This document shows positions 30,147 to 63,048 of a DNA stretch of 64,000 nt, piece after piece; the stretch's first letter is position 1, and each line of letters begins with the position of its first letter. Location: positions 71,115-135,114 of the forward strand of contig JAFLBV010000003.1 of NCBI GenBank assembly GCA_017302895.1. The letters are read 5' to 3'. The DNA is from Ignavibacteria bacterium. GTDB lineage: Bacteria > Bacteroidota > Ignavibacteria > Ignavibacteriales > Ignavibacteriaceae. A model generated the notes under the pieces. It saw only the letters and a list, made by a program, of their open reading frames with translations. It had not been told where the DNA came from and ran no database searches. Position numbers and translations under genes: made by a program.

Positions 30147-30147
30147 T

Positions 30148-30295
30148 TCATCCTTCAACCCTCTGCCCTCCTCATTCATCCTTCAGCCCTCTGCCATCTT
30201 TTTTCAGCCTTCAGCCCTCTGCCATCTTTTTTCAGCCTTCAGCCCTCTGCCATCTTTTTTCAGCCTTCAGCCCTCTGCCCTCCGCTTTCTGCCTT
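30148..30295. repeat. Tandem repeat, 28-bp period, 5 copies (3 central copies identical)
   Basis: Core CCTTCA(A/G)CCCTCTGCC starts at 30152, 30180, 30208, 30236 and 30264. The units at 30180, 30208 and 30236 are identical (CCTTCAGCCCTCTGCCATCTTTTTTCAG). Confidence 0.95.
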
Positions 30296-53317: not shown

Positions 53318-54409
53318 TCAAGGATTAACGAAAATTGTTGAATCGTTCTCGTCCTTCTTTAAAAACCCGTAGTTTGAGAAGTCGGTCAATGTTATAAATG
53401 CCTGCCCCACTTCTTTCAGATACTCGCTGATTGCAATCGATCTTGCCTTGTCAAGCTCACCAAAAACATCATCCAACAGGAAAAAAGGTGTGTTCTTTAA
53501 AATCTTCTTCAGAAAAAAGAACTGTGCGAACTTCAATGCCACTTGAAATGTCTTGTGCTGCCCCTGTGAACCGAAAGTTCTTACGGAATTTCCGTTTATG
53601 CTGAAAATAAAATCATCCTTATGCGGACCGGTCAGGTTTGTCCCCCGTCTTATCTCATTCTCCCTGTTTGCAAGTATCGCCTTGTGAAACACACTCTGAA
53701 TGCCGGCATCATCCACAGCAAAAGAATCGTATTCGATTGCCGGAATCTCTTGGTTGTTCATAATGTGAGAGTATGATTCGGAGAGGTAGTCCTTGAATTC
53801 GCTGATGAACTTTCGTCTCATCACGATGAGTTGGACGCCTGAATTCACCAGTTTTTCATCCCAGGCTTCCAGTTGATCAAAGAGGGTTTTCGACCTGAAC
53901 TCTTTCAATTTATTTAAGAGAGATGACCTTTGCTTTAATGTTCTGTTGTAGTCGAGAAGTGTATCAAGATACACTTCACTCGACTGCGAAATAACCGAAT
54001 CGACAAATTTTCTTCTGTCAGCGGGATACCCGTGGGTAAGGTCGAGATCTGCCGGAGTCAGGACCACGACCGGAAACTTGCCAATCACATCTGCGGCACG
54101 GTTTAATTGCTTCCCGTCCTTAAAATATACTCTTTTATTCTCCTCTCTTCCATACCTTATCCTCACTTTATGAGAAGTGAAGCTCTCGATGGAGGAGACA
54201 ATTTCGTAAACATCCGAGTCAAAATTTACCATCTCAGTGTCAGGACTCGATCTGAAACTTTTTGTAGTACAAATGAGATAGACAGCTTCGAGTATGGTGG
54301 TTTTGCCTTTGCCGTTACCACCAACCAGAAAGTTTAGCCCCGGAGAAAAATCAAAATGCGAATCCTTATGCAACCGGAAATTCTTAAGTTCCAGCGACTT
54401 TAATATCAT
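53318..54409 (-). CDS. recF: DNA replication and repair protein RecF
   Basis: Walker A VGGNGKGKTTILEAV, signature region FGSQGQHKTF and Walker B FLLDDVFGELD. Confidence 0.92.
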   Translation of the reverse strand: MILKSLELKNFRLHKDSHFDFSPGLNFLVGGNGKGKTTILEAVYLICTTKSFRSSPDTEMVNFDSDVYEIVSSIESFTSHKVRIRYGREENKRVYFKDGKQLNRAADVIGKFPVVVLTPADLDLTHGYPADRRKFVDSVISQSSEVYLDTLLDYNRTLKQRSSLLNKLKEFRSKTLFDQLEAWDEKLVNSGVQLIVMRRKFISEFKDYLSESYSHIMNNQEIPAIEYDSFAVDDAGIQSVFHKAILANRENEIRRGTNLTGPHKDDFIFSINGNSVRTFGSQGQHKTFQVALKFAQFFFLKKILKNTPFFLLDDVFGELDKARSIAISEYLKEVGQAFITLTDFSNYGFLKKDENDSTIFVNP

Positions 54410-55515
54410 ATTGTGTTCAGACGCGTCGGCATGAGGAGCATAAGCAGATCCTCATTTTCATCCTGTTTAAGCGGCTTGAATATTGCTGCTTTTGACGGGG
54501 ACACCAACTCGACCACTAGATCATCACAGTTTAGATTGTTCAAAATTTCAAGCAGGGATTCGGTTTTGAAGCCGATGGTAAAATTTTCACCAATATAATT
54601 TGCCGGAATCGACTCGTCAGCCCTTGAACCGCTCTCCTGATCCTCAGTATTCATTTGTATGCTCTCTTTGTCGAGAGTAACTTTTACAAGCTGGAAGTTT
54701 TTGTTGCTGAGAAGTACCATTCTTCTTGTGGCGGAAATAAAAGGCGCCTTACTGATTGAAAGCTTATTCGGACTGTCGGCAGGAATTACGGCACTGTATT
54801 CCGGAAATTTATGCTCTATCAGTCTTGAAACGAGTCTGGTGGTTCCTGATTCAAAATACATGCCGCCTGTTGTATATTTCAGGGAAACAACCCCGTCTTC
54901 AAGAAGTTTTACAAGGATATTAACAGTTTTACCCGGTACAACAATAGCCACGGGATCGTCATGCTTCAAATTGAGAGCTGAAAATCTGACAAGTTTGTGG
55001 GCATCGGTGGCAACAAAATGTGTACCATCCTCTTTCATATCGATAAGCACACCTGTCATGGAAACCCTTGCTGAATCCTTGGATACGGCGAAGGAGGCAG
55101 CCTGAAGCGCTTTTTTGAGAAGCTTTGCATCTATTTCGAGGCTGTTTTCAGTTTCAATATCTTTAAATCCGGGGAAATTGTCGGGGGAGGAGTAATTGAA
55201 ATTGTAATGGCCCAGATCGGTTTGCATCACAATTTTTTGTTCCTCAATCACCACTCTGATCAGCGTGTCGCCGAGTGATTTCACAAAATCGCTCAGGAGT
55301 TTCCCTTTCACGATGAATCTTGCCGAACCGTCGCATGTAACCAGATCTTTTACACTGATCGCAACTTCATGATCATTGGCAGTAAGGGTAAGTTCGCCAT
55401 CCCCAAATTCAACAAGGATGTTCTCGAGAATTGGCATCGGGGTACGCAGTGGCACAGCCGGGAGGACTTTTGTTATCAGCTTGTCAAAAGCTATACTGTT
55501 AATGGTAAATTGCAT
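54406..55515 (-). CDS. dnaN: DNA polymerase III beta subunit (sliding clamp)
   Basis: 369 aa with the typical N-terminus (LPAVPLRTPMPILENILVEF...LTLTANDHEV). There is a 4-nt overlap with recF. Confidence 0.92.
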   Translation of the reverse strand: MQFTINSIAFDKLITKVLPAVPLRTPMPILENILVEFGDGELTLTANDHEVAISVKDLVTCDGSARFIVKGKLLSDFVKSLGDTLIRVVIEEQKIVMQTDLGHYNFNYSSPDNFPGFKDIETENSLEIDAKLLKKALQAASFAVSKDSARVSMTGVLIDMKEDGTHFVATDAHKLVRFSALNLKHDDPVAIVVPGKTVNILVKLLEDGVVSLKYTTGGMYFESGTTRLVSRLIEHKFPEYSAVIPADSPNKLSISKAPFISATRRMVLLSNKNFQLVKVTLDKESIQMNTEDQESGSRADESIPANYIGENFTIGFKTESLLEILNNLNCDDLVVELVSPSKAAIFKPLKQDENEDLLMLLMPTRLNTI

Positions 55516-55830
55516 TATGATTTCCTGTTTTTCCGAATGTCAAAAATACAAAATTTCCCGCAATTTGTGGCAGTTTATATGTCGTCAAATCGTGCATTTT
55601 TTTCAACTTGCAAGAGCGATAGCAACAAAAATTCAGTTGGTTTGAGGTTTTTCCCTCTTTTACCCAAACATGTCGCTTATAATGGATATAAAGGCGTCCG
55701 GAAAACCACCCTATCTGTTCCGTTGCACCACGGCGTACAGGGCGGTTTTTCGCCTCACCCGGTGACCACGCATTCACCTTCAACTGCTCCACAAGGTCAC
55801 TCACGGCGAAAAAAGAGAATATTCGCAGTT

Positions 55831-55905
55831 TATATTTTACTTTAAAGCCAAAATGGAAAATATAAATATTTATATTTTACTTTTCGGGCAAAATGGAAAA
55901 TATGG
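55831..55905. repeat. Two 34-bp palindromic units at 40-bp spacing, downstream of fic; identical to 57119-57193
   Basis: The units at 55831-55864 and 55871-55904 have the form TATATTTTAC-N14-GGAAAATAT(A/G). The block begins 13 nt beyond the fic stop codon. Confidence 0.95.
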
Positions 55906-55918
55906 CTACATCCGATTG

Positions 55919-57049
55919 CTATTTATTAAGAATATCGAGGTACTCTTTGAACAGGAAAATCCTGTTTCTTTTAAAACCGGTAATTTCCGTCAATATTCCC
56001 ATTTCTTCGAAACTTCTAAGAAGCTCATTAACTGTTTTTTGAGAGATTAATAACAACCGCTCTACTTCATTGGTGTTTATGATTGGCTTTCTAAAAAGTT
56101 GATCGAGCAGGAGTTGAGCTTTTTGAGCCTTTTTACCCAATCCAATTATTTTTTTCTGAGTTAAACTGTTTTTCAATTCTACAATTCTGCTCAATGAGTA
56201 CACAGCCTCTTTAGCTGTTGTTTCTACAGCATTCAAGAAAAAGATGATCCATCCTTCCATATCTCCCTTCTCCCTCACGAAGGTCAATTTATCGTAGTAT
56301 AAACTTTTGTTTTTCTCAAAGAAATCGGATGTATAAAGCAGAGGCTTATCAAGTAACCCGGCAGAAATCAGATACAGAGTGATCAAAAGCCTCCCGATTC
56401 TTCCGTTTCCGTCAAGGAAGGGATGAATGGTTTCAAATTGATAGTGAGCTATCGCTATTCTTATTATTTTAGGGACGGAGAGGTCTTCGTTGTGAAGGAA
56501 CTTCTCCAGATCAGACATCAACTCATCAACAAGGTCAGCAGCCGGGGGCACAAAAACAGCATCTTTGATAGAGGCACCACCTATCCAGTTTTGCGATGCC
56601 CTGAACTCGCCGGGATTTTTTGTCTTTCCTCTTACATGTGAGAGGAGAACTGCGTGGGTAGCTTTTAAAAGACGGCTGGAGAGTGGAAGACGATTTAATT
56701 CATCAAGTGAAAAGTTCATCGCCTCCAGATATTTTTTTGTTTCTATCCAGTCATTTCTGTGCTCCGGGTTGACATCAAGCTCGTCGTAAAATGCCTCTTC
56801 GATGTTGGTCCTAGTCCCCTCGATTCGACTCGAAGTAACAGCCTCCTTGGTCACATATGATTGGATAAAAAGATCAATATCAGGAATAAATTTCGCATAG
56901 GAGTTTAATTCTCCCAGTCTTAAGGAAACCTGTTCTAGCAGCTCGAGGATTCTGTTGTTGCTAAAGTTCCAGGAACGGTTTATCTGTGATGGAACAAAGT
57001 ATTTGTATTGGTAGCCTTGTTTGTAGCTTCCGGGATTAAAATTGTCCAT
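55919..57049 (-). CDS. Fic-family protein (AMPylase-type, class II with N-terminal inhibitory motif and C-terminal winged-helix-like tail)
   Basis: 376 aa. The active-site motif is HPFLDGNGRIGR. The inhibitory (S/T)xxxE(G/N) motif appears as SSRIEG upstream of the core. The C-terminal LLISQKTVNELLRSFEEMGIL is HTH-like. Confidence 0.9.
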   Translation of the reverse strand: MDNFNPGSYKQGYQYKYFVPSQINRSWNFSNNRILELLEQVSLRLGELNSYAKFIPDIDLFIQSYVTKEAVTSSRIEGTRTNIEEAFYDELDVNPEHRNDWIETKKYLEAMNFSLDELNRLPLSSRLLKATHAVLLSHVRGKTKNPGEFRASQNWIGGASIKDAVFVPPAADLVDELMSDLEKFLHNEDLSVPKIIRIAIAHYQFETIHPFLDGNGRIGRLLITLYLISAGLLDKPLLYTSDFFEKNKSLYYDKLTFVREKGDMEGWIIFFLNAVETTAKEAVYSLSRIVELKNSLTQKKIIGLGKKAQKAQLLLDQLFRKPIINTNEVERLLLISQKTVNELLRSFEEMGILTEITGFKRNRIFLFKEYLDILNK

Positions 57050-57078
57050 ATTGCAAATTTTTGTGTTTGATGGTCATT

Positions 57079-57193
57079 TATATTTTACTTTAAAGCCAAA
57101 ATGGAAAATATAAAATACTATATTTTACTTTAAAGCCAAAATGGAAAATATAAATATTTATATTTTACTTTTCGGGCAAAATGGAAAATATGG
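57079..57193. repeat. Three 34-bp palindromic units at 40-bp spacing, upstream of fic
   Basis: Units at 57079-57112, 57119-57152 and 57159-57192. The nearest unit starts 29 nt from the fic start codon. Confidence 0.95.
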
Positions 57194-57302
57194 AATTGGG
57201 GATATACCTTTTGCGAGAGGGAGAATTGATAGCTAAATTAATCCCTTTCCCACCTTGGCTTTATTTGTTAAATTTGTAAATTGCTCAAAAAAATAATTAG
57301 AG

Positions 57303-58067
57303 ATGAAAAAAGTATTATTTCCGGCACTTTTGGCTGTGATCTTCCTGGCAGGCTGCTCACTTGATGTCGACCGTTCTGCCATGTCACCTGAAGAGAGATT
57401 CAAGTATGCACTGTCTTTGTACGAAGATGAGTCATATCTTGAGGCAATAACCGAATTTGAAGGTATACTGATACAATATCCCGGCAGTACAGTTGCAGCA
57501 GATGCCCAATATTTTCTAGCGATGTCCCGCTTTAAAAGAAGTGAATATCTGATGGGTGCCTACGAGTTCAGTAAGCTGATCAACACTATGCGCGCAAGCA
57601 AGTATATTAAAGACGCACAATTTATGCTCGCCGACTGCTATTATGAATTGTCGCCGAATTATGCTCTCGACCAAAAGTACTCGGAGAAGGCAATCGAGGA
57701 ATTTCAGGCTTTTATCAATTTCTTCCCAACCGACCCAAAGGTAGAGGAAGCTGAAAGAAAAATTGCCGAAATGAACGACAAACTCGCTCAAAAAGTCTTT
57801 TCAAATGCAGTAACTTATGAAAAAATGGGTATGTATGGAGCAGCGATAGAATACTACGGCTACCTTACCGAGAAGTATCACGATTCAAAATATTGCGGTG
57901 AAGCCTCCTACAACAAAATTACACTTCTTGTCGACAGAAAAAGATATAAGGAAGCTCTCAAGGAAACAGAACTCTTCCTCGCCAGATACAAAGGTGATCC
58001 GAACACCCGGAATGTTGAATCGATCAGAGCAGATCTCTTGAAAATGCCACAACTCTCGGCTCAATAG
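57303..58067 (+). CDS. bamD: Outer membrane protein assembly factor BamD (TPR lipoprotein)
   Basis: The lipobox is in the signal peptide MKKVLFPALLAVIFLAGCS. The TPR pattern includes YEDESYLEAITEFEGILIQYPGS and AQFMLADCYYE. Confidence 0.8.
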   Translation: MKKVLFPALLAVIFLAGCSLDVDRSAMSPEERFKYALSLYEDESYLEAITEFEGILIQYPGSTVAADAQYFLAMSRFKRSEYLMGAYEFSKLINTMRASKYIKDAQFMLADCYYELSPNYALDQKYSEKAIEEFQAFINFFPTDPKVEEAERKIAEMNDKLAQKVFSNAVTYEKMGMYGAAIEYYGYLTEKYHDSKYCGEASYNKITLLVDRKRYKEALKETELFLARYKGDPNTRNVESIRADLLKMPQLSAQ

Positions 58068-58068
58068 A

Positions 58069-58533
58069 ATGGATAAGCCGGTAAAAATCTCTCAGGTCGT
58101 TATGACCGAGCTGGTGCTTCCAAACCACACCAACCCCCACTCACATCTTTTGGGCGGGCAGTTGATGCTTTGGATCGATATTTGTGCCGCTCTCTGCGCC
58201 GCAAAACACGCCCAGGCCGTCTGCGTAACTGCCTCTGTTGATAAAATTGATTTTCACCACCCCATTAAACTCGGGGAAGTGGTTACACTTCAGGCATCGG
58301 TAAACAGAGTATTTAATACCTCGCTTGAAGTGGGGGTAAAAATCCACTCCGAATCATTTTATTCGGGGAACAGAGCGCATACAAACAGTGCGTATCTTAC
58401 ATTTGTAAGTATCGACAAAGATGGCAACCCCGTACCCGCACCAAAAGTAATCCCCGAAACTGAAGAGGAGATTCGCCGGTTTGAGCAGGCAGGAACCAGA
58501 CGGGAACAGCGCCTCCGTAACCGGATAAAATGA
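58069..58533 (+). CDS. Acyl-CoA thioesterase (YciA/BFIT-like hotdog)
   Basis: VVMTELVLPNHTNPHSHLLGGQLMLWID...TASVDKIDFHHPIKLGE. Confidence 0.8.
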   Translation: MDKPVKISQVVMTELVLPNHTNPHSHLLGGQLMLWIDICAALCAAKHAQAVCVTASVDKIDFHHPIKLGEVVTLQASVNRVFNTSLEVGVKIHSESFYSGNRAHTNSAYLTFVSIDKDGNPVPAPKVIPETEEEIRRFEQAGTRREQRLRNRIK

Positions 58534-62863: not shown

Positions 62864-63048
62864 TACCTGCAATTTATGATGGCTTTTTTGCACACCCCAA
62901 AAGACTTCTGATTGTTTACCCTTGTCTCGATTACCTGTAATTTGATTATGGTGGTTTTACTCACCCCAAAAGACTTCTGATTGTTTACCCTTGTTTCGAT
63001 TACCTGTAATTTGCTGATGGTGGTTTTACTCACCCCAAAAGACTTCTG
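62864..63048. repeat. Tandem repeat, 69-bp period, about 2.7 copies
   Basis: CACCCCAAAAGACTTCTG starts at 62893, 62962 and 63031. The full copies 62893-62961 and 62962-63030 differ at 3 of 69 positions. There is a degenerate partial copy at 62864-62892. Confidence 0.95.

Follow-up and report, generated by a model that had tools for sequence, protein, structure and literature searches.

Between the divergent genes dnaN and bamD of the window (the whole 64-kb stretch of DNA analysed here) lies a single fic gene with an array of 34-bp palindromic units on either side. The features, in window positions, are as follows.

54406–55515, minus strand: dnaN (open reading frame list, Pfam)
55516–55830, minus strand: non-coding DNA separating dnaN from the array; retained by the fic-less allele and forming the left edge of the variable spot
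55829–57193, minus strand: whole module (two units, fic, three units), over which a second Ignavibacteriales species, L052, has a homologous cassette
55831–55864, no strand: downstream array, unit A, centre AAAGCCAA
55871–55904, no strand: downstream array, unit B, centre TCGGGCAA; ends 13 nt past the fic stop codon
55831–55905, plus strand: 75-bp direct repeat, copy 1 (A-B), identical to copy 2 at 75 of 75 positions
55919–57049, minus strand: fic, a SoFic-type class II Fic AMPylase of 376 aa by Pfam, PADLOC and structure-chain alignment
57079–57112, no strand: upstream array, proximal unit A; stops 29 nt short of the fic start codon, predicted as a likely promoter-overlapping operator
57119–57152, no strand: upstream array, middle unit A
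57159–57192, no strand: upstream array, distal unit B
57119–57193, plus strand: 75-bp direct repeat, copy 2 (A-B), identical to copy 1 at 75 of 75 positions and 1288 bp from it
57229–57302, plus strand: conserved bamD-proximal sequence, common to relatives with different cargo upstream and forming the right edge of the variable spot
57303–58067, plus strand: bamD/YfiO (open reading frame list, Pfam)

The enclosed gene is, as far as its sequence tells, a SoFic-type, auto-inhibited class II Fic enzyme with a C-terminal winged-helix domain. Like SoFic itself (MloA/SO_4266 of S. oneidensis, and the anti-phage gene EcSofic), it matches the SoFic model and structures along its full length: the PADLOC model PDLC03963 is hit with E = 3.3e-118 (residues 11–375 against model positions 4–359 of 361), and phmmer aligns residues 40–375 with the SoFic structures 3eqx, 9tch and 9vjc (E about 1e-37). 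Pfam finds Fic_N and Fic (Fic E = 5.5e-18), and a 412-aa chain labelled 'Fic-domain containing protein', 7cb8, is matched with E = 1.5e-31. The intact active site and the auto-inhibitory SSRIEG motif reported in the earlier note were both found. The first, HPFLDGNGRIGR at residues 209–220, fits HPFx[D/E]GN[G/K]R and is invariant in an eight-sequence alignment; the second, TSSRIEGT at residues 72–79, follows the class II (S/T)xxxE(G/N) pattern, N-terminal and within the same chain, with S73, S74, I76, E77 and G78 invariant among homologues. Conservation is lowest in the C-terminal domain, about residues 285–376 (column means of 0.49–0.62, versus 0.7–0.99 in the Fic core), and despite this its wing motif TG..RNR.F is invariant. 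For the AMPylation target, SoFic sets the precedent of EF-Tu.

EcSofic has a 47-aa antitoxin, AS1, encoded downstream (PMC12249575); the window module has no room for such a gene, because only 13 nt separate the fic stop codon from the array. A small open reading frame at 55499–55804 (minus strand), considered as an AS1-like antitoxin, was rejected: its frame differs between the window and the close relative L006, it lies outside the module, and it is retained in fic-less alleles.

Architecture of the palindromic arrays

The window contains five 34-bp units, repeated at an exact 40-bp period within each array. Scanning all 64 kb with the arm pattern at up to 3 mismatches returned ten matches, which are these five units on both strands (0.02 in shuffles), and no further copies. 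Unit coordinates, period, the identity of the 75-bp repeats, their 1288-bp distance and the gaps of 29 nt and 13 nt to the start and stop codons were all reproduced as first described. One point was refined. The palindrome, initially read as 10-bp arms around N14, is real, but the true dyad is longer, with 13-bp arms and an 8-bp centre; the family consensus is TATATTTTACTTT-N8-AAAGTAAAATATA, of which one arm is slightly degenerate in the window lineage. The two centre variants had been placed in the same A-B order on each side; A-B does occur on both sides, with the left (downstream) array reading A-B and the right (upstream) array A-A-B.

The upstream units end 29, 69 and 109 nt from the fic ATG, as dyad-symmetric sites near the start codon. 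The perfect identity of the 75-bp repeats, which extends to the lineage-specific B centre, requires a recent duplication, gene conversion or a Campbell-type event. Rfam scans, at the gathering threshold and with permissive settings, left both the arrays and the dnaN leader without an RNA family match. A sigma-70 promoter scan brought up no clear promoter, only weak matches no better than those in shuffles, and was uninformative.

The unit accompanies fic across lineages

A metagenome scan for the unit yielded 49 dereplicated good loci: in 22 a Fic homologue lies no more than 200 nt away, 9 lie at the end of a contig, and in the other 18 the unit stands alone. Across about 20 homologue lineages the unit commonly lies 33–75 nt upstream of the fic start codon. 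It follows the gene from one unrelated setting to another, a Treponema genome and type I restriction-modification operons among them, and the Fic proteins next to it, one of them in that Treponema genome, are only 45–63% identical to the window's. Information content across these homologue units is concentrated in the 13-bp arms (1.5–2 bits per position, against about 0–0.6 bits in the centre). In most homologues the only unit is a single upstream one, not part of a tandem array; arrays downstream of fic occur in only about six lineages of the window's subclade, and the other subclades that were looked at have none. Relics are one explanation for the 18 lone units of 49, and sites that regulate other genes in trans are another. 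Lone arrays are also seen in defence-island contexts. Among viral contigs, only three carry the unit, with no sign of phage carriage.

Periodic half-sites extend beyond this subclade. Upstream of the gene, alternating half-sites particular to the subclade also occur elsewhere in a set of 80 SoFic homologues chosen on protein sequence alone, with array periods of 40–41 bp (L173, L178, L198 and L203) or about 50–51 bp (L212, L228, L216 and L223), and sister subclades show half-site spacings of 30/21 or 24/27 bp. The promoter fragment of Shewanella SoFic contains the 8-mer ATGTCGAT three times, 39–40 bp apart, at 107, 68 and 28 nt from its start-codon end, which parallels the window units at 109, 69 and 29 nt from the start, although the half-site itself differs from that of the window. 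A downstream array and flanking direct repeats, both present around the window fic, are not reported for SoFic.

Published experiments on two homologues bear on what such sites may do. Dimeric SoFic binds the 100 bp directly upstream of its own start codon in vitro, and autorepression has been suggested; binding to the Shewanella promoter DNA was measured (bioRxiv 10.64898/2026.07.09.737422), and no motif is known to have been named for it. CccR of Yersinia pseudotuberculosis is a dimeric class II Fic protein with a C-terminal HTH that serves as both autorepressor and toxin; it represses its own promoter, where DNase I footprinting maps it to an inverted repeat (PMC9755527). CccR shares the domain layout of the window Fic, including the N-terminal SxxxEG inhibitory motif, and its inverted repeat lies near the gene start, as the window units do by position. 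The two systems differ in that the CccR operator, AGATAATCAT-N26-ATGATAATCT, is reported as a single site (PMC9755527), whereas the window has a 13-8-13 unit, three times upstream at 40 bp and twice downstream; moreover, CccR is a T6SS effector, whereas the window fic has no visible secretion context.

Gain or loss of fic at the dnaN–bamD site

Comparison with relatives indicates that dnaN and bamD, which are divergent, enclose a spot of variable cargo, and that the module sits in it. Four relatives (L006, L008, L009 and L010; about 93% nucleotide identity, DnaN identical to the window's) show the same site with two units and without fic, and the one BamD that was checked among them, from L006, is identical to the window BamD. 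Relatives with 74–94% identical BamD have no units there and carry other genes instead. A further relative, L081 (BamD 76% identical), has at the same site three units and a divergent fic whose N-terminus is 55% identical, while closer relatives are without units.

A second presence/absence pair is formed by L052 and its fic-less counterpart L053. The homology of L052 to the window starts at the first left unit and stops inside the right-hand array, with unrelated flanks outside the arrays, and each of the two Ignavibacteria pairs with and without fic has its indel boundaries within units. Compared with L052, the window's fic is 77.6% identical in nucleotides and 87% in amino acids, the left array 90.7%, and dnaN about 80% in nucleotides. 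The idea that the window and L052 represent two unrelated insertion sites was dropped, as the L052/L053 site likewise lies a few kb upstream of dnaN, so that descent may have been vertical. Two units of L052 have complementary variant arms, a single example that hinted at a crossover in the unit centre; a small palindromic inversion or two substitutions would account for them equally well. In a third pair, from Treponema (L025/L158), the fic-less allele retains a unit together with about 25 nt of the fic 3′ end, and its lone unit is clearly the relic of a fic deletion.

From the fic-less two-unit relatives, the unit-free relatives with other cargo and the Treponema relic, we infer that the flanking arrays mediate gain or loss of fic and that recombination between repeats causes the polymorphism. 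Because the units form direct repeats on both sides, fic would be easily lost, with sites left behind in relatives.

Cognate operators as the best-supported reading

Of the readings offered in the earlier note, the one in which the units are operator sites for the winged-helix tail of Fic has the best support, from the comparative evidence combined with the experiments on CccR and SoFic. It fits best because the unit is tied to fic, because subclades have their own arrays, and because ATGTCGAT recurs at 39–40 bp in the Shewanella promoter. We infer, from the published experiments on CccR and SoFic and from half-sites that change with the protein between subclades, that Fic binds the units and thereby represses transcription.

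The explanation we favour is thus that fic by itself makes up a SoFic-type module for defence or toxicity, with a putative anti-phage (abortive infection) or toxic AMPylation activity; that the 34-bp units are the cognate operators through which Fic represses its own gene; and that fic is deleted when the arrays recombine, a lone array being left. We place the probability of this explanation as a whole at about 0.7. Each unit would pair two inverted half-sites of 13 bp across an 8-bp centre without sequence specificity, which sets the half-site centres 21 bp apart. By occupying the three units just ahead of the start codon, Fic dimers would, as CccR does, repress their own promoter. The two-unit array past the stop codon would place fic between direct repeats; recombination between the arrays would then delete the gene and yield the lone array, the state seen in close relatives, and the reverse reaction could in principle put fic back. 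The operator account follows the published model of CccR and SoFic autoregulation, and the locus most likely exemplifies self-regulation of this known kind.

Several observations are less comfortable. The half-site is near-invariant across the subclade, which sits uneasily with the weakly conserved C-terminal domain of Fic, and simple autorepression does not explain the downstream arrays. Further points against the account are the 18 lone units, the lack of a clear promoter in the sigma-70 scan, and the recent event that the perfect 75-bp identity calls for.

Alternative explanations

The units might instead be recombination sites of the loxP/FRT kind, with a 1288-bp circle (fic, A and A-B) integrated Campbell-style into an existing A-B array, by a host site-specific recombinase or by homologous recombination, to give the 75-bp repeats as attL/attR-like products. 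We consider this unlikely. It draws on the perfect 75-bp direct repeats with their lineage-specific B centre, on the two-unit fic-less allele at the same site, on the indel boundaries within units in both Ignavibacteria pairs, and on L081, with its divergent fic and three units where closer relatives are unit-free. The unit also has the 13-8-13 geometry of loxP/FRT-type core sites, and the 75-bp repeats supply partners with identical centres; but adjacent units differ in centre, which would block tyrosine-recombinase exchange between them, and the 30/21 or 24/27 bp spacings of sister subclades do not fit a recombinase core site. No recombinase lies within the cassette, and nothing points to a dedicated one, be it an integrase or Xer. 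Further evidence against comes from the homologues, most of which have units on the upstream side only, from the Treponema fic-less allele, which is an imprecise deletion and not a site-specific excision, and from the divergence of fic between the window and L052, which is similar to that of dnaN and compatible with vertical descent. Contigs of 1.23–1.30 kb that contain only fic had suggested free circles, but an assembly that breaks at the 75-bp repeat accounts for them; in one (L002) the ends overlap by 13 nt, which gives exactly the 1288-bp period and is no proof of a circle.

The same evidence bears on the earlier proposal that fic was inserted into a pre-existing A-B site, for which an empty site was sought in the dnaN–bamD interval of relatives. 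A two-unit fic-less allele was indeed found, in close relatives. However, the likelihood that this 'empty' site arose by deletion is no lower than that of its being a landing site, because the homology of L052 includes both arrays, more distant relatives are unit-free, and the Treponema unit is clearly a deletion relic. A role of the units in a mobile cassette and a role as operators can coexist.

Known recombinase-less cassettes offer a partial likeness. As with loxP/FRT-type sites, integron attC cassettes and the pdif modules of Acinetobacter, a single gene in about 1.3 kb is bracketed by short palindromic sites, and presence/absence alleles keep the sites, as at the window locus. Unlike those sites, the window units form 40-bp tandem arrays with differing centres, and across the family the unit sits in the promoter region of its own cargo gene. 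We rejected an integron gene cassette in particular: attC cores are RYYYAAC/GTTRRRY, and the window arms, ATTTTAC/GTAAAAT, mismatch at the invariant TT/AA position; neither an IntI integrase nor an attI site is present within the module. At 34 bp the unit is also shorter than known attC sites, which measure at least about 57 bp.

A variant that joins both roles, and to which we attach only a small probability, has the operator arrays double as landing pads: a recombinase-less SoFic cassette would leave as a 1288-bp circle through its own repeats, and the circle, or linear DNA that had been taken up, would re-insert into lone arrays. Such a course would fit the lone arrays in defence-island contexts and the divergent fic of L081 at the bamD-upstream site. 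If it were true, autoregulatory sites would have a second effect, driving a defence gene's turnover and the exchange of its alleles.

It is very improbable that the units have nothing to do with fic and represent a REP-like dispersed repeat, an oriC element (AT-rich 13-mers by dnaN) or a host-factor site controlling dnaN or bamD. The setting has some appeal: dnaN and bamD run divergently on either side of the array; the cumulative GC skew, falling until then, flattens out over the final ~8 kb of the window, in which the array is found; the arms are AT-rich 13-mers; and a lone array with intact arms persists in fic-less relatives. Yet the unit tracks fic into unrelated contexts, the Treponema genome and the restriction-modification operons among them, and is missing from the site in relatives with 74–94% identical BamD. 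Against an oriC element in particular, no DnaA box (TTATCCACA-like, up to 1 mismatch) occurs within 54166–58235, which covers the dnaN–bamD interval. Nor is the unit a generic REP-like element, the outcome that the earlier note had set against its own readings: no dispersed copies were found in the 64-kb window, unit matches on contigs of 539 kb and 128 kb are confined to this site, and the genome scan gave one matching contig per genome only.

The suggestion of a type III-like system, in which transcripts of the upstream repeats would be processed into RNA antitoxins that counteract Fic as the toxin, deserves hardly any credence: three short tandem repeats do lie directly upstream of a toxin-class gene, as in ToxIN, CptIN and TenpIN, and the arrays fold as RNA better than shuffles (z about −3.3 to −3.9, as expected of any palindrome array), but the repeats are DNA palindromes whose conserved dyad arms and freely varying centre form the pattern of a DNA site and not of an RNA fold, they are single-copy in most homologues and occur also downstream of fic or alone, and the protein is an AMPylase with its own inhibitory helix and not an endoRNase of the ToxN/AbiQ type. 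No terminator-like site was found between the repeats and fic, in the same scan as the sigma-70 search and as uninformative overall.

Implications for SoFic-type modules

What we observe directly at the SoFic locus, from family membership and the conservation and position of the unit to the periodic arrays across the family and the presence/absence alleles, does not overturn current understanding. It provides a precise and testable candidate operator, TATATTTTACTTT-N8-AAAGTAAAATATA, for one SoFic subclade. It also provides a small case of defence-gene turnover, in which repeats derived from a gene's own regulatory sites would ease its loss and leave recognisable scars. Across the family, SoFic genes show subclade-specific periodic half-site arrays of about 40 or 50 bp, the Shewanella promoter included, and this pattern could guide footprinting and structural work on phage sensing by proteins that are at once enzyme and regulator.

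The fic module and its enzyme

The fic region of the window lies between dnaN and bamD/YfiO, with the gene order as follows:

54406–55515, minus strand, dnaN, flanking the fic region
55919–57049, minus strand, fic, a SoFic-type Fic enzyme of 376 aa
57303–58067, plus strand, bamD/YfiO, flanking the fic region

Five 34-bp palindromic units (starts 55831, 55871, 57079, 57119 and 57159; period exactly 40 bp) flank both ends of the fic open reading frame, 29 nt separating its start codon from the closest upstream unit and 13 nt its stop codon from the downstream array. Segments 55831–55905 and 57119–57193, offset by 1288 bp, are identical at 75 of 75 bp. The arm pattern matches 10 times in the window, these being the five units read on both strands (0.02 matches in shuffles), and nowhere else in its 64 kb. 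This layout, described in the earlier note, was reproduced in full, as were the intact active site HPFLDGNGRIGR and inhibitory motif TSSRIEGT, both of which are invariant among homologues.

We assign the predicted protein to the class II, SoFic-type Fic enzymes with a C-terminal winged-helix domain because, besides carrying these two motifs, it contains Fic_N and Fic (Pfam), matches the PADLOC SoFic model end to end (E = 3.3e-118) and aligns over residues 40–375 with SoFic crystal structures (phmmer, E about 1e-37); it also matches 7cb8, a 412-aa 'Fic-domain containing protein' chain (phmmer, E = 1.5e-31). The SoFic family is reported to provide anti-phage defence from a single gene (PMC12249575).

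The unit accompanies Fic across genomes

A search of public genomes and metagenomes with the arm pattern yielded a generalised unit, the 13-8-13 palindrome TATATTTTACTTT-N8-AAAGTAAAATATA, in which the information content is 1.5–2 bits per position in the arms and about 0–0.6 bits in the 8-bp centre. Among 49 dereplicated metagenome loci with good units, 22 encode a Fic homologue no more than 200 nt from the unit, 18 hold lone units and 9 are at contig ends. Fic is the sole protein that accompanies the unit across loci, and the usual position of the unit is 33–75 nt upstream of the fic start codon. The unit-adjacent Fic proteins, one of them from a Treponema genome (L025) and another from a GC-rich genome of the Ignavibacteria (L017), are only 45–63% identical to the window protein. 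This pattern is the signature of a putative protein-binding DNA site that moves together with the gene. Lone units elsewhere adjoin hsdM, DNA methylase, DUF559 and AbiEi genes, which are defence-island contexts.

Units and Fic genes often occur inside type I restriction–modification operons, in the order hsdM–unit–fic (loci L122, L071, L106 and L114/L125). In L122, a short Fic of 242 aa that lacks a winged-helix domain (833–1561) precedes a good unit (1635–1668), with hsdR next; this unit could be left over from a SoFic gene that was replaced. Short-read assemblies break repeatedly at units, leaving fic on separate contigs of ~1.25 kb (L011–L014, L090, L125, L002–L005), and for this reason the flanking sequence will frequently escape automated surveys of SoFic context.

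Arrays as probable operators for the winged-helix domain

Two related proteins are known to bind their own promoters. CccR of Yersinia pseudotuberculosis, a dimeric class II Fic protein with a C-terminal HTH, protects an inverted repeat in its own promoter from DNase I and represses that promoter (PMC9755527). SoFic, the MloA protein of S. oneidensis, binds the 100 bp that precede its start codon as a dimer but not as a monomer, according to a preprint whose consulted passages name no motif for the bound DNA (bioRxiv 10.64898/2026.07.09.737422). In the mloA promoter DNA of its Table S2, to which SoFic binds in vitro, ATGTCGAT occurs three times in direct orientation (positions 192, 231 and 271; spacing 39 and 40 bp) and twice inverted (162 and 242). 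Measured from the start-codon end, the direct copies lie at 107, 68 and 28 nt, and the window units end 109, 69 and 29 nt from the fic start. ATGTCGAT is a candidate SoFic operator.

Further, we compared 80 SoFic homologues from viral contigs (37–55% identical), chosen on protein sequence alone. The window-type unit is mostly absent from this sample, in which subclades carry their own alternating half-sites upstream (for example, TATTTTAATTTT, ATCCTTTCTTT, TTATTTCATTT, ATTTTACTTAA and CCTTTACTTTT), with periods of 40–41 bp (L173, L178, L198 and L203) or about 50–51 bp (L212, L228, L216 and L223). The half-site sequence therefore varies with the protein while the periodic architecture is retained, which supports the earlier proposal that the Fic winged-helix domain uses the arrays as operators. 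A caveat is that conservation along the protein is lowest in the C-terminal domain, save for an invariant wing motif, TG..RNR.F. The window module belongs to the SoFic/CccR kind, and most likely the auto-inhibited enzyme represses its own gene through the operator arrays; simple autorepression leaves the downstream arrays unexplained.

Gain and loss of fic between dnaN and bamD

The earlier note had also offered, as one possible reading, that the flanks are attL/attR-like products of fic cassette insertion. A fic-less, two-unit site does exist: in four relatives with about 93% nucleotide identity to the window and an identical DnaN (L006, GCA_020161395.1; L008; L009; L010), the dnaN–bamD interval is 500 bp with the same flanks, two units only and no fic; BamD was compared for L006 and is likewise identical there. 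Against insertion, more distant relatives are unit-free, with no units upstream of bamD where BamD is 94%, 82% or 74–77% identical, and the fic-less allele of a Treponema pair (L025/L158) retains the unit together with roughly the last 25 nt of fic, the lone unit there being a relic of deletion.

In a second species (L052 and L133), fic is 87% identical in amino acids to that of the window and lies between an upstream array of three and a half units and a downstream array of two; L053, its fic-less counterpart, keeps two and a half. Homology between the window and L052 runs from the first left unit to within the right-hand array, and thus includes arrays of both sides (nucleotide identity 77.6% in fic, 90.7% in the left array). 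The L052 site is also a few kb upstream of dnaN, which speaks against a second, unrelated insertion site; the alleles may descend vertically from a filled ancestor. The 22 nt at L052 3625–3646 (unit 1 right arm, AATATT spacer, unit 2 left arm) are the exact reverse complement in L053, which could have arisen by inversion of a small palindrome or by two symmetric substitutions.

Recombination between the flanking arrays would yield the fic-less alleles. Alternatively, the window allele may be a recent re-insertion, which would account for a 75-bp repeat that is perfect and includes the lineage-specific B centre (one of two centre variants, A and B); that the arrays act as landing pads for such events is improbable.

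The fic module occupies a variable spot flanked by essential genes that are divergently oriented. At the same site, a divergent fic accompanied by three units with a 40-bp period is present in L081 (BamD 76% identical), and unit-free relatives carry other cargo: a DUF87 ATPase, a 607-aa protein, an M48 peptidase, a cytochrome and an HTH_3–M78 protein with RmrA/capP-like PADLOC hits. Across Ignavibacteriales relatives (window 57194–57302; loci L161–L170), a ~70-bp sequence next to bamD is conserved, and the cargo immediately upstream of it varies and includes SoFic, a lone array, the DUF87 ATPase with two small ORFs, and others. L052 has an additional PD-Lambda-2_B-like gene between dnaN and fic. 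This site resembles a variable or defence spot close to dnaN.

Other readings of the units

The unit geometry fits loxP/FRT-like core sites, but adjacent units differ in their centres, the spacings of sister subclades are incompatible and the module has no recombinase on board; we consider this reading less likely than the operator one. The suggestion of a type III-like RNA antitoxin did not hold up: most homologues have a single unit, the toxin is not an endoRNase, no terminator was found between the upstream array and fic, conservation lies in the dyad arms, and units are also found on their own and beyond the 3′ end of the gene. Unlike a REP-like element, the unit has no dispersed copies in the 64-kb window or on contigs of 539 kb and 128 kb, and a single contig per genome matched in the genome scan; an oriC element is disfavoured by an interval free of DnaA boxes and by the unit accompanying fic into unrelated contexts, and the unit cores mismatch integron attC.

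Neighbouring sequence features

Between the array and dnaN lies a 315-nt non-coding stretch (55516–55830, minus strand) that diverges more than nearby genes (83–90% identity versus about 93% overall in the ~93%-identical relatives). It has no Rfam hit and a predicted conserved long-range helix, CCUCUUUUUUC with GGGUAAAAGAGG, with only one compensatory pair among three sequences compared; the stretch could serve as a dnaN leader or encode a small RNA. A tandem array at 30147–30295 (28-bp unit TTCAGCCTTCAGCCCTCTGCCATCTTTT, 4.8 copies) and a similar TTCAGCC-rich repeat between the units and bamD in L081 (about 430–560) may belong to a dispersed repeat family of the group. At 62864–63048, a 69-bp unit is repeated in tandem (2.7 copies with 90% matches).

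Implications

What is new here is modest: a candidate operator sequence for window-type SoFic; a periodic array, of 40 or 50 bp, as a trait of the SoFic family; and arrays on both sides that would turn fic into a deletable cassette, with lone-array scars remaining.
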